Part shown: piece by piece, positions 6,001-12,000 of the stretch
Layout of the letters: each line of letters starts with the position of its first letter
Position numbering within the stretch: the stretch's first letter is position 1
IMG/VR virus record: IMGVR_UViG_2713896798_000015
Reading direction: 5' to 3' (one strand)
DNA: 14,115 bases
From: a virus
Taxonomy: Duplodnaviria; Heunggongvirae; Uroviricota; Caudoviricetes
Made by a program: the position numbers

Positions 6001-9000
6001 TCTGGTTCTCCAGTGTTTTACTGACCGTCTGTGTGATTTCATTGCGGGTTTCCGTGATGCTGGTCTTCATCTCCGCCATCTCATCTGCAAGCTGGCTGTT
6101 ATCTATCAGTTCCCACAACCCCTGAGCCAGATGCAGTTTTCCTATTTTTTCCCGGAAAAATTCCAGATACCCTTCACCATCATTGCTGGGCTGCCCGCTG
6201 ACTTCCACAAACGCAGATTTCCCCACCAGGTTGACGCTGCGCACGTAAAACCAGAAATCCTTCCCGGGCTTAATGTGCGGGCCGGATACACTCCACTGAC
6301 TGCCGGTCCCCAGATAACGGGCAGAGGTTTCCACCTGAGATGTGTCTGCGATTTTTGCCTCCGAAAACCAGAACTCAAACTGTACCGTCGGGTCATACAC
6401 CGCAAGACGCGGGACCGCCGTTATCTGAAAATACCCCGGCGTCAGTTCAATGGTGGCGGGTTTTGCTGGCGCGTTAATCCGGAAGGTGGTGGTGGCCGGT
6501 TCGCCCTGCTGGCCATAACTGTTAATTGCCCTGACTGTCAGGGTGTATTCCCCGGGCGGCAGACCACTGAAACGATGCTCTGTATCCGCAGTGATGGCGG
6601 TGGTCACCAGACGGCTGTCTTCTCCGCTTCCGCTGGTCAGGCGCAGACTGAAGCGCACACCCTTCACCACCCGCGGCGTGTCCCATTTCGCCTGTGCCAG
6701 ATACTGACCGTCAGCCGCGCTCACCTCCACCGTCAGGTGCTGCACTGCCGGTGGAATAACGCTGTTCAGGGTGCCTGACTGCGGCTCAAAGCTGGCCCCG
6801 TTATCCACGATGGCTTCTTTTTCCGGTACGTGCTGCACCGCCGTGATGGCAAAGGTGCCGTCCGTGTTTTCCCGGATGGAGACACAGCGGAACAGGCGAC
6901 GACGCAGTGACGGCAGGGAGAGTCCCCATACACCGTATGTCTCCACGCCATCCGGCAGGGTGCTGACCTGTATCCGGTCCGGCGCGGGGTGTGCAGTGAT
7001 GGCCACGCTCACCGGCTTACCGCTGCCGTTAATCAGGTTCACCGTGGCGGCACCTGTCTCCGGCAGGGTCACCTCACGGTCCAGTGTCAGGGTGCGGCTG
7101 GCGGCATCGATGGACAGGATACGTCCGCCGGTCATGGTCCCGGCATAGTCGTTATCACAGATTTCAATAATGTCACCGGGTGTGTGACGCAGCCCCTGTG
7201 ACCCGAGCGTGAAATCCACCGTCTGCGTTTCCAGCAGTCCGGTCTTTATCACCCACAGCCCGGCACGGTGGGCCTGACCGCGACTGGTGCAACCGAACGC
7301 ATCCATCTTCAGCAGGTTGCGCCCGTAGCGCAGTATGGCTTCCGGGTCTTCCACCAGTTCCGTGGAGGTCTGCCAGCCGTTCTGCGGGTCGGTGTAATTC
7401 ACCTCCACCGCCGTGTGGCGGTCCTTCAGGGCGCTGAAGCTGTAGCGAAACCCCACGCCGTTATCATCCACCACCACATCGCAGTTGGTGTACGGCCACA
7501 CCACATCCGACGGGCGGTCCTGAACGAACGTCAGCGTCTGGCCGTTCCATACCGGCATACAGCGCATCGCCGAGCAGAAATCACTGAGAACGTCCCACGC
7601 CTTACGCTGTTGTGACAGGTACGCATTAAAGGTCATCCGCGGCTCTGTGCCCCCGAAACCATCCGGGACCGTCTGGTCGCAGTACTGCGCAATGGCATAC
7701 AGCGCCCATTTGTCCACGTCTGCCGCCCCCAGACGTTTTCCCATGCCGTAGCGCGGGTGAGTCAGCATGTCCCACAGGCACCAGGCCGGGTTGTTGCTGT
7801 ATGCCGGTTTCAGGCTGCCGTCCCAGATGCCGCTGTACGTGCGTTTTTCCGGGTCATAGTTTGACGGTACCTGGATGATGCGACCGCGGATATGGTAGTT
7901 CACCGTCATCTGCTGACCGCCAAACTGCTCCGCATCCACCTGCAGCCCCACAATCGCCGTGTTCGGGTAGCACTGTTTCACATCGATGATTTCGGTGTAT
8001 GACGACCAGAGCGTTCTGTTCTGCAGCTGGTCCGTGGTGCTGTCCGCCGTCTCCCGGACCATCCGGATGTTAAAGGGACGGGGAGGCAGATTCTCCAGAA
8101 TCACCGACGCCAGGTACTGTGAGGTGGTCTTGCCGTTAATGGTGACATCCTTTTCCGTCACCCAGTTACCGTTACGCTGCAACTGAATCAGCAGTCGGAC
8201 AGAAGAGGGATTACGGTCGCCCTTTGAGGTGGTCTCCAACAGTGACTGCACCCCGAAGGTGACCCGCAGGCGGTCAATGTTCGCGGACGTAATGGTGCGC
8301 GTCACCGGCTTTGCTTTCGTCACTTCCACGCCCAGTGCGGTTTCCGCCCCGGAGGACTCAAAGCCTTCAGGTGGTGTCTGCTCCTGCTCCCCGGCGCGCC
8401 AGACCGCTGTCACACCATGTATCACAGGATTACCGTCCGTGTCCGTCAGCGGGGTTTTGTTCACCAGAATACTCTGCAGCCCCTTCACCGGACCTTCAAT
8501 CGGCCCTTCACCAATGGCATCAATCACGCTCATCATCTGCGTGGACTTAAGATTGTCCTTTGCCTCAACCGGCGTGTGTGCCCTGCCGCCACCTTTACCC
8601 ATAATGTTCCTCTCAATTGGTATTATTAATCGCAGTGATAGGATATTGCACAGCTATTGCGCGATATCATCAGAACGCTGTTTGTTACCCTGTAACCAGC
8701 AAGCTCAGTCTGTTAACGGAATTAATGAGGGTTTTATGAAATGTAAAATCATTGCTGCCATTGCCATGCTGACAGCAGCATCATGCGGATACGCAGCAGA
8801 ACAGGAAGTCCCAATGAACCTTGTCAGTGCTGACGGAAAAGAAGTCAGCATTGGAAAAATAACCATTCAGGAGACCCCCTACGGTCTGCTGTTCACACCA
8901 GCCCTTCACTCTCTGTCTGAAGGCATTCATGGTTTTCATGTGCACGAAAAAGGAAATTGCGCCCCGGCACTGAAAGACGGAAAACCGGTCGCAGCATTAT

Positions 9001-12000
9001 CGGCTGGCGGTCACTTTGACCCGAAAAACACCGGCAAACATCTTGGCCCCTGGTCTCCGGATGGACACCTGGGCGACCTCCCTGCGCTGTTCGTGACGCA
9101 TGACGGAAAAGCGAACTACCCGGTCCTGGCCCCGAGACTGAACTCATTAAAAGAGATTAAAGGGCGTTCTCTCATGCTTCATGCTGGCGGTGATAACCAT
9201 CATGACCATCCGGAGCCCCTGGGCGGTGGTGGTGCGAGAATGGCCTGCGGCATCATTCAATAATCAGTCAGGTAAGGGGCGGGCCCCTTACCTTTATTCC
9301 TCAGGACGATAAATCCTTTCTCCCTGAAAAGAACGGCACATCCTCCCTCTCTGAGTTAATGTTTTTGTCGTGACATAAGAATAATTCCTTACACTCAATC
9401 TTCGTAACGCTCCCGCAGTTCCTGTCCGTGAGCACTGCGGGATTTTTTCGCTTTTATGCCTGCCGCCCGATAACCACCACCTTCCCGCCACCACCTTCAT
9501 CACGGGTACTGATGTCCTGGGAGATTCGCCGTGAGCCAACCAGCATTTCACCGTAAGGCACCGGCATCGGGTTCCCCTGAGCAATCATGTTGTCCAGTGA
9601 GGAAAAATACGTGTTCTGTCTGCCGTTATCCGTTGCGCGGTAATCCGGTGTTTTTGCCTTCGGGGCCAGCATCTGGGCCACACCACCCAGAATCATGCTG
9701 GCCCCCAGTGAAAACAGCATCGTGGTGGCAGAAAAACCACCGGCTGCCAGGGCTGAACCCCATAACGCCATTGATGCCCCGGCCGTGAAGAACGACCCCA
9801 CGATGGCCGCCGCCCCCAGCACAATCTGCAGTCCGCCTTTTCCGGCCCCGGCCAGTCGCGGCACAATATGGATGACCGCCCCCTCACCCAGAGGTTCGTG
9901 AAGACGGGCGTACACCGCCTCCGGTGCCGTGTCCTCACCGCGAATACGTATCTGGTACCAGCCTTCGTTCATCTGACGGCGGAATCCCGGCACCTGTAAC
10001 GACAGCGCCCGGATGGCTTCCGCTGCCGTGTTCACATACAGGCTGAGGCGGCGGCCAAATCGTTGCAAATCCCCGTGAAGGCAGATACGTGCCAGTGGCG
10101 GTGACGCCAGACAGAATGCGTTCGTCGTTGCCATTTTTCGGAATACCTCTCCCGTTTACTCAGTTGTTCAGGCAGATGGTGAAGCAGTTCACCGTTGCCG
10201 CAGTAAATGGCGGCATGATTGGCCACCGATGCGCCAAAGCAGCACAGCAGGATATCGCCCGCCTGTGCAGAGGACAGGGGCACCCGGTAAAAGCCGGTGA
10301 CCGCCATATTGTCCAGGTAAAGGTTCTGACCGTTACGCCACCAGTCATCCTCACGCTCAAAATCCGGCATATCAATTCCCGCCAGATGGTATGCATCCCG
10401 GAACAGCGTGTAACAGTCCGTCACCCCGTGCTCAAAGCGCCGTCCTGTCAGATGTGGCACACAGCGGAATTTATGAATTTCCCCCCGGCAGACCAGCCAC
10501 CAGGACAGTGCGCTTTTTATCTGCAGCCGCCGGTCAGCCTCGCTCAGCCAGGGCAGTCCACCGGGATGACTGTGGACCAGTGCCACAATCTCCCCCTGCA
10601 TCTCTGCCCGCAGCCAGTCTTCCGGTGCGATACGAAAATACGCCTCCGGCTCTGCAGAGATATTCACACAAGGGATATACCGTTCCCCCTCCGGCGTGCT
10701 TATCACGAAGCCGCACGACTCCGCTGGCGCACATCGCCGGGCGTGCGCCAATATATTGCTATAGAGCATGAGAACTCCTGATAAAAAACCCAGCCGAAGC
10801 TGGGTCATTTCGTTGGCAATCTGTTAGTAGTGATGTAGTGAAGGAGGTAATTCTTTGTTCTTAAGCCTTACCCATGCGGAAAGATTCGTTGGTCCGTCTG
10901 GCTCATTAATATCAACATCTCGTGTGTGATTGATTAAAACATCTCTCGCCATTCCAATAACATACGAGAACTCATGACCGTAGTCGTAACATCTGCCGGA
11001 ATAGTTCGATTGAATTTGCTTTAGCGCTGGATACAATTCGCGGAATAATGCCTGTGAGCGGTTGGCATAATCCCATAGCCATACAAGGCTGTTTGCTTCT
11101 TTTGCGGAAAGCTCGTTGGTGCTCTTCTCTTGTTTGCCGATTAACTCTCCTTCAAGCGGAACGCGAGCAGCAAGTGACAGAGCTTCGGTAAACTGCTCCT
11201 CGCTGATTTCTTTGTATGAACACCCAAAATGAGATTTCAGTGACGACCACATGGTGATCATCGCCTTCGCCTGTTTTTCTTTTGGCAGAGACTGACCGCG
11301 ACTCATGACGAGTTGTTTAATGGCTTCCTGCTGTTCAGTGGTGATTTTCCCCGGCAATGCCTTTTTAGCTTTGCGCGGGTTAATCACATGGCCTTTAGTC
11401 CAGTACTCGTAGAGCACATCGTCACACTCTTCCTGATACTGGATTACCTTGTCGCGGATTTCAGGGCGGACTTTGTTTGGTTGAATGCTTGAAAGCCAAG
11501 CCGCAAATTTACGAAAGGCAAGACATGTCATTAACTGTTTACCGCCAGCAGAAGGTATTTCGATTTCCGAAATACCCTTGACAAACCTCTGTTTTAACTT
11601 AACAAATTGAGCAGCCCAAACCATCCCCATACCTTCAACAACAGGCTTCATAGGAACATAAGGCTCATTGTTAATTCCAACCAAAAAGAGATTTGTTCCG
11701 TGGAATGGAACATTGATTGTGCGATCTGCAATTGCTAAACTAGTCATATCAGTTTTCTCGTGGTTAACTGGTAATTTTAGAAGCCTCAATGGTTGCAGCC
11801 ATTGAGGCTTCGCTGTTTTTAGCGACCATTCGCCACCTCTTCCCTAACACCTTTTGCCAGCAAACGAACAATTGCAGAGTTCAGAGATATACAGTCCATT
11901 TCCGCCAGGCGGCGAAGGTCTTCATTCAGCCGTGATGGAAGGCGAAGGTTGAGTTTGATATTTTTGCGCTCAGTGAAAAGTGTATCTTGCATTATCTAAT

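Follow-up and report, generated by a model that had tools for sequence, protein, structure and literature searches.

What does a superoxide dismutase gene bring with it when it settles inside the tail operon of a prophage, and what was there before? We addressed this question in a stretch of 14,115 nucleotides (the window) from IMG/VR virus record IMGVR_UViG_2713896798_000015, which is the tail-gene end of a lambdoid prophage of the Shiga-toxin (Stx) type. Its tail operon is on the minus strand, and positions 8603-9453 are exactly the 851-bp intergenic region between the tail genes I and J, bounded on the left by the start codon of J and on the right by the stop codon of I (9454-9456). The single credible gene within this block is sodC (8736-9263), on the plus strand. 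We report that the block is very probably a classic moron that arrived by cassette replacement, with sodC-F1 read from its own promoter and ended by its own terminator (terminator 1, T1), and with a second hairpin (terminator 2, T2) that is the terminator of a resident small RNA (sRNA) gene. Gene identity, block boundaries, the replacement, the resident nature of T2 and the relation to the EcOnc22-24 RNAs come from the present analysis, and expression, export and function of SodC-F are taken from the literature. The features of the locus are as follows.

5126-8602, minus strand: J (tail tip/host specificity), 1158 aa, an open reading frame (ORF) with the Pfam GpJ domains FNIII-A_GpJ, Ig_J, Phage-tail_3 and Ig_GpJ_C
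8603-8735, plus strand: J-sodC divergent spacer, 133 bp, AT-rich, with the ribosome-binding site (RBS) of J on the minus strand and the presumed sodC promoter
8736-9263, plus strand: sodC (sodC-F1 allele), 175 aa, periplasmic or lipid-anchored Cu,Zn superoxide dismutase (SOD)
9270-9293, to 9299 with UUUAUU, plus strand: T1, stem-loop with a 10-bp GC-rich stem and a 4-nt loop (dG -17.4 kcal/mol, z -2.4)
9300-9347, no strand assigned: cassette-specific filler, from T1 to resident spacer sequence
9348-9453, plus strand: promoter-less EcOnc22/23/24 homologue, with a U-run, a variable A/C-rich stretch, AATCTTC, the hairpin CCCGCAG/CTGCGGG (9411-9442) and T6
9411-9442, with U6 at 9443-9448, plus strand: T2, hairpin with a 9-bp stem (dG -16.1, z -2.2)
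9454-10134, minus strand: I (tail assembly), Pfam Lambda_tail_I

The block carries the sodC-F1 allele

The initial annotation described a complete sodC with a signal peptide lying antisense between I and J, and the protein bears this out: it matches Pfam Sod_Cu (PF00080) over profile positions 3-133 of 133 (E 3.9e-32, 111.9 bits, cut-off 28.9), and its best matches in the PDB are bacterial Cu,Zn-SODs (E about 1e-62). The copper ligands H68, H70, H93 and H149 and the zinc ligands H93, H102, H111 and D114 are all present, as are the disulfide cysteines C75 and C171 and the active-site R168, with R168 and C171 falling inside the conserved motif GGGARMACG. An RBS, GAGGG (8726-8730), lies 5 nt before the start codon. 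The hydrophobic N-terminus reads as a signal peptide (residues 1-20) with a putative lipobox, AASC, at residues 14-17, both assigned from the sequence alone; the identical signal has been analyzed experimentally and is compatible with lipid modification (PMC2569942). Nucleotide 335 of the gene (window 9070) is T, giving Leu112, that is, the F1 allele, as the T/C (Leu/Pro) polymorphism at this nucleotide tells sodC-F1 from sodC-F2 (D'Orazio et al. 2008, PMC2569942). A 344-aa plus-strand ORF (8229-9263) was rejected as a gene, being an in-frame upstream extension of sodC that runs antisense through J, and two small minus-strand ORFs in 9294-9584 (96 aa and 44 aa) were also judged non-genes.

That sodC is expressed and active is known from published work on this very gene in lysogens: tagged SodC-F proteins accumulate in both exponential and stationary phase, expression is independent of RpoS, and sodC mutants are more sensitive to peroxide (H2O2) (PMC2569942).

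The position of the gene within the tail-tip operon had been singled out as the striking part, a judgement that does not survive comparison, as the same arrangement is annotated in prophage Sp4 of strain Sakai, occurs in ~10% of complete E. coli genomes and is common to Fels-1. The 851-bp block is 100% identical in the Stx2a-converting phages LC567829 and LC567840, where sodC is annotated. A search of 5426 complete E. coli genomes found 80% or more of the block in 547, with identities that almost always reach or exceed 99%. In Sp4 (O157:H7), sodC_1 (ECs_1120) sits on the opposite strand with ECs_1118, the I-type gene, on one side and ECs_1121, the J gene, on the other, the same slot as in the window, and the two blocks differ at a single position over 851 bp (9070, T in the window and C in Sp4). 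The prophage of the window also carries, in other parts of the tail region, an ant/arc module and an IS66-family element; otherwise nothing of substance sets it apart from Sp4. Chromosomal sodC genes of other genera, at 68% identity or less, were among the matches listed in a protein scan of genome contigs with SodC. The block is the sodC-F already described in Shiga-toxin-type E. coli, in its usual I-J place.

sodC replaced part of a resident spacer

The composition of the block marks its foreign origin: GC content is 52.8% in sodC and 39.8% in the J-sodC spacer, against 57.8% in J and 60.5% in I. The initial annotation had taken the block for extra DNA and stated that I and J of lambda abut. 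In lambda the two genes are in fact 60 bp apart, but the block is indeed extra, and its spacing is not that of homologous phages lacking sodC, whose I-J spacers measure 234-344 bp. A composite query, with 300 bp from J fused to 300 bp from I, found 142 phage records in which the two halves are 235-342 bp apart. Among 77 IMG/VR loci with an I protein 96-100% identical and a locatable J, the spacers fall into three length classes.

234-260 bp: 47 of 77 loci, no sodC
338-344 bp: 14 of 77 loci, no sodC
848-851 bp: 16 of 77 loci, with sodC, antisense

Spacers without sodC share one order from J to I: a short variable stretch, a hairpin that we call hairpin A, a conserved block, a plus-strand promoter-like element, a body and an invariant hairpin. 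The promoter-like element is TTCACA-16-TATAAT (or TAATAAT), the body that follows is ~95-105 nt long, and the invariant hairpin (CCCGCAG-loop-CTGCGGG) is followed by a run of T6-7 that extends to the stop codon of I. Homology between the window and these phages begins at query position 746, corresponding to window 9348, which places the right recombination joint at ~9347/9348, ~5 nt upstream of the predicted transcription start from the sRNA promoter-like element. From there to I, window 9348-9453 (106 bp) is 98% identical to Stx1a and Stx2c phages without sodC (2 differences from the sodC-less locus L074), and this is the only part of the I-J spacer in common. Everything from the start codon of J to 9347 is cassette-specific, including the RBS of J, and the J-sodC spacer sequence up to the J ATG is unlike every sodC-less spacer type. 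The comparison indicates that a sodC cassette of ~745 bp (8603-9347) has replaced the J-proximal 130-240 bp of the spacer, including the sRNA promoter.

The 106 bp that both forms have in common on the I side would also be expected if sodC were ancestral at this junction and the short spacers were deletion derivatives. We regard this history as extremely improbable. The short spacers hold 130-240 bp that the sodC form does not have (hairpin A, the conserved block and the sRNA promoter), and simple deletion can therefore not turn either form into the other. In addition, the base composition of sodC and of the spacer before it is not that of I and J, and most loci belong to the sodC-less forms, which are diverse, the sodC form being almost clonal. 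Across the 16 sodC-bearing loci the replacement cassette is nearly invariant, with variation limited to position 9338, position 9409 and the loop and tail of T2; T2 therefore recombines with the I side and not with sodC.

Hairpin A (CAGGCAyCC-loop-GGrTGCCTG) is a strong hairpin with a U-run on the tail strand just upstream of J, seen for instance in L002 (5895-5935), in L003-L008 and in L009 (3236-3262). Within the stem, A:T is exchanged for G:C by a compensatory change, and there is also a third type of loop. By its structure it would serve the late operon as an internal terminator on the sense strand, and the sodC form has lost it. In the 338-344-bp spacers (14 IMG/VR loci; L006 501-842), ~170 bp of other sequence stand in place of hairpin A and include a hairpin, AACCCCGGTATC...GATACCGGGGTT, set between A- and T-runs, which resembles a bidirectional terminator; these spacers retain the promoter and body of the sRNA. 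Some spacers (L003 and L004, spacer 505-545; L022) have 2-5 copies of a heptamer, TGTCTGA, directly before the RBS of J, and the copy number accounts for the spacer length classes of 245, 259 and 260 bp. In one further locus (L016 3284-3338, E. coli 24AR0142; ~ window 9386), an IS66-like insertion just downstream of sodC cuts the orphaned sRNA body and parts sodC from I.

The I-proximal sequence is the body of an EcOnc22/23/24-type sRNA gene

EcOnc22 (Sp15), EcOnc23 (Sp14) and EcOnc24 (Sp11) are three homologous Hfq-bound RNAs (Tree et al. 2014, PMC4104026) that run at about 85 nt on northern blots and are destabilized in an hfq mutant, and the I-J intergenic regions of Sp15, Sp14 and Sp11 are among the most Hfq-enriched of the genome (PMC4104026). 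The targets of EcOnc22 were listed as unknown in a 2021 review (PMC7873438). We identified their locus from Table S2 of Tree et al. 2014, the northern probe in the supplement and the list of Hfq-enriched intergenic regions. The reverse complement of the 22-nt core of the probe (TTAATCTTCATCGTTCTCTCCC) matches exactly only the strand antisense to the tail genes. In Sp15, Sp14 and Sp11 alike, the match falls within the I-J spacer and has the CCCGCAG hairpin directly on its 3' side. The distance from the predicted sRNA start to the U-run is ~90 nt, fitting the size seen on northern blots. Coordinates in Table S2 (PMC4104026) refer to an older Sakai record and lie about 142 bp below those of NC_002695.2 (stx2B/AsxR anchor; ~1.27-2.9 Mb); taken as printed, they lead to the wrong half of the spacer between I and J. 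A placement of the EcOnc22-24 peaks over hairpin A beside J, which follows from unadjusted coordinates on NC_002695.2, was rejected, the probe mapping beside the CCCGCAG hairpin. AgvB and AsxR were rejected as the identity of the spacer sRNA, as both sit at the PR' moron site.

The window copy aligns with this family (alignment A1, 73% mean column identity) through conserved GTTA, U-run, AATCTTC and CCCGCAG...CTGCGGGATTTTTT blocks; it lies on the same strand as EcOnc22/23/24 and has the same invariant terminator stem abutting the stop codon of I. It differs from the Sakai copies in the middle of the body, which is another variable region, and in having no promoter. In the consensus fold of 14 sRNA-body variants, the terminator stem alone is formed, with 7 invariant pairs and loops of variable length. 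A search of the window and one sodC-less locus against Rfam at the gathering threshold returned no family; EcOnc22-24 are not in Rfam. Judged by its sequence, window 9348-9453 is the transcribed body and terminator of a variant EcOnc22/23/24 gene.

Between the conserved blocks, alignment columns 18-50 (window 9365-9395) comprise at least four A/C-rich sequence types on a conserved scaffold, which recalls the variable-seed, constant-scaffold design reported for the AgvB and AsxR anti-sRNAs.

Where the sodC-less spacers have their promoter-like element, TTCACA-16-TATAAT/TAATAAT, the window has cassette sequence, which ends ...CATCCTCCC, and a scan of 9294-9352 found no promoter-like site. The window copy is without a promoter and therefore cannot be filed as a functional member of the EcOnc22/23/24 family. 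Could the orphaned body still be functional, with read-through of T1 and processing releasing an EcOnc22-type sRNA from the 3' untranslated region (UTR) of sodC, co-regulated with sodC? The body has hardly changed, differing from a sodC-less copy at 2 positions; since the joint falls just before the predicted start, all of the transcribed part survives; and the T1 stem is followed by no more than UUUAUU. However, T1 is a strong 10-bp GC-rich hairpin, the near-identity may simply reflect recent origin, and the published Hfq peak lists give no entry for the sodC-bearing I-J region of Sp4, while they list the promoter-bearing copies of Sp15, Sp14 and Sp11, all three among the top Hfq-bound intergenic regions. 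We consider a functional orphan unlikely.

Two hairpins of different origin

T1 begins 6 nt past the sodC stop codon and is absent from sodC-less spacers, i.e., it is cassette-specific; it is sodC's own intrinsic terminator. The U-run of T2 ends 5 nt short of the stop codon of I. Neither hairpin has a T-run after it when read on the minus strand. The terminator scan of this 1.5 kb counted 6 terminator-like sites, where shuffled sequence gave 1.7 +/- 1.3. The initial annotation saw in the two hairpins a pair of tandem terminators insulating the tail genes from sodC. Two plus-strand hairpins do precede I, but they are not one cassette device: T2 and the 60 nt upstream of it are resident in phages without sodC.

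A purpose-built insulator imported with sodC to protect the tail operon would fit the plus-strand specificity of both hairpins and their position between sodC and I, and T2 would back up termination whatever its origin. Such an import is nonetheless improbable, and somewhat more so than the functional orphan considered above. Phages that have no sodC, nor a sodC transcript to be stopped, carry T2 and its 60-nt leader equally far from the stop codon of I, and in those phages the two are part of a detected sRNA; the variation among sodC-bearing loci likewise joins T2 to the I-side sequence.

Transcription of the block

In the moron reading that we favor, the late operon would be silent in the lysogen and sodC would be read from its own promoter in the 133-bp J-sodC spacer. 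SodC would be exported as a periplasmic or lipid-anchored Cu,Zn-SOD, shielding the host from exogenous oxidative stress. T1 would end the sodC mRNA and T2 would stop read-through before it enters I in antisense, T2 not having been imported with sodC but being the terminator of the Hfq-dependent EcOnc22/23/24-family sRNA gene that, together with the sense-strand hairpin upstream of J, fills the I-J gap in sodC-less relatives. The position of the promoter, the efficiency of T1 and late read-through are the parts of this scheme that we infer. The best candidate promoter is TTGGTA (8617-8622), 16 nt and TG-n-TAGGAT (8639-8644), and the assignment of the sodC promoter to this TTGGTA-16-TGnTAGGAT site is tentative. 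For the identical gene, a lacZ fusion driven by 299 bp of upstream sequence was expressed without dependence on RpoS (PMC2569942). A PhoP box upstream of sodC, considered by analogy with Salmonella sodCI, was rejected, the best site still having 3 mismatches. A literature search on ECs1120 and on sodCIII with Fels-1 found nothing on transcript mapping.

Several observations weigh against this reading. The candidate sodC promoter matches the sigma-70 consensus at only 8/12 positions, the best score in a relaxed search upstream of the gene that gave no convincing consensus, and no 9/12 match was found in the J-sodC spacer. The U-run of T1 is interrupted (UUUAUU), and termination there may be incomplete. 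The T2 stem shows no covariation in the consensus fold of the 14 variants, being invariant. Finally, that the Hfq lists do not include the I-J region of Sp4 argues only weakly for silence of the orphaned sRNA body.

Polymerase modified by Q ignores terminators in lambda-type phages. Upon induction, a terminator-resistant late transcript would cross the sodC region on the minus strand and reach J. A scan found no sigma-70-like promoter on the tail strand between I and J, and the late transcript must therefore cross sodC in antisense to reach J, as the initial annotation had proposed. The arrangement is common and strongly conserved, and it is therefore evidently tolerated. Interference between sodC and tail expression is possible in principle, as speculation.

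One could go further and see in convergent sodC transcription a regulatory device that damps expression of J and the tail tip, or the reverse. The geometry forces head-on transcription when both are active, but the late operon is silent in the lysogen, antisense morons are common (lambda bor, Gifsy-2 sodCI, the Fels-1 sodC homologue), and the idea has no support of any kind; we hold it to be very unlikely.

Relation to known prophage morons

Morons are a concept of Juhala and Hendrix, with lom and bor of lambda as lambdoid examples, bor being antisense. The sodC block resembles lambdoid morons in being additional DNA between two genes that adjoin each other in relatives, with its own terminator and a deviating composition, and its expression in the prophage is published (PMC2569942). 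Unlike a moron at a bare junction, sodC replaced part of a pre-existing non-coding module.

In Salmonella, the Fels-1 sodC homologue (STM0924; sodCIII in the literature) occupies the same I-J slot in the same orientation, with 60% protein identity. Its non-coding flanks differ: the 53 bp before the I stop codon hold a weak hairpin alone and no EcOnc22-like body. Fels-1 retains a sense-strand terminator-like hairpin just upstream of J, analogous to hairpin A. Salmonella Gifsy-2 sodCI (STM1044; 59% identity), a prophage Cu,Zn-SOD that is virulence cargo, is likewise antisense in the tail operon but at another junction, where a Lom-like gene/M and L are its neighbors. Few genes of Gifsy-2 are highly expressed in lysogens, in which the lytic genes are silent, and sodCI is one of them (PMC7067206).

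Other features of the window

Further genes of the tail region surround the I-J block.

3056-4375: tail-fibre gene, expected Pfam domains
4434-5093: lom, expected Pfam domains
10032-10808, minus strand: K, expected Pfam domains
12435-13133, minus strand: L

A second accessory module in the tail operon (10824-12420) separates L from K and is like the P22 immI region; Stx2_EH2201 is without it, and L and K are adjacent there. Its genes follow the annotation of a 99.6% identical prophage.

10824-11747, minus strand: phage antirepressor
11818-11991, minus strand: Arc-family gene
12098-12418, plus strand: divergent Arc/Mnt-like gene

An IS66-family element (ISCro1-like) occupies positions 1-2650, all on the minus strand; in relatives this position is taken by effector genes such as nleC or tccP2.

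1-1572, minus strand: IS66-family transposase, whose stop codon is the exact window start
1592-1939, minus strand: IS66-family tnpB
1939-2616, minus strand: IS66-family tnpA

Discussion

For sodC itself our findings add little: the gene, its prophage location, its expression and its role in peroxide resistance are published, and standard annotations of O157 Sakai and Fels-1 show the placement between I and J. The sole new detail is that T2 is the promoter-less remnant of a small RNA gene that normally fills the I-J gap. Acquisition of the moron took the form here of a cassette replacement with its joints at functional boundaries, the start codon of J and the sRNA start.

It is conceivable, though we think it doubtful, that phages of this group reserve the I-J gap for an Hfq-dependent sRNA whose seed-like middle can be exchanged, and that in sodC prophages the promoter was lost and the body became the distal 3' UTR of sodC, with a leaky T1 yielding an EcOnc22-type sRNA co-regulated with sodC. 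If true, a moron would have captured a resident phage sRNA and tied it to an oxidative-stress defense gene.

Taken together, what lies between I and J in Stx-type lambdoid phages is not empty spacer but a structured non-coding module. The uncharacterized EcOnc22-24 RNAs are thereby tied to a defined and widely conserved phage locus with at least four types of variable region, a link that may help the search for their targets.

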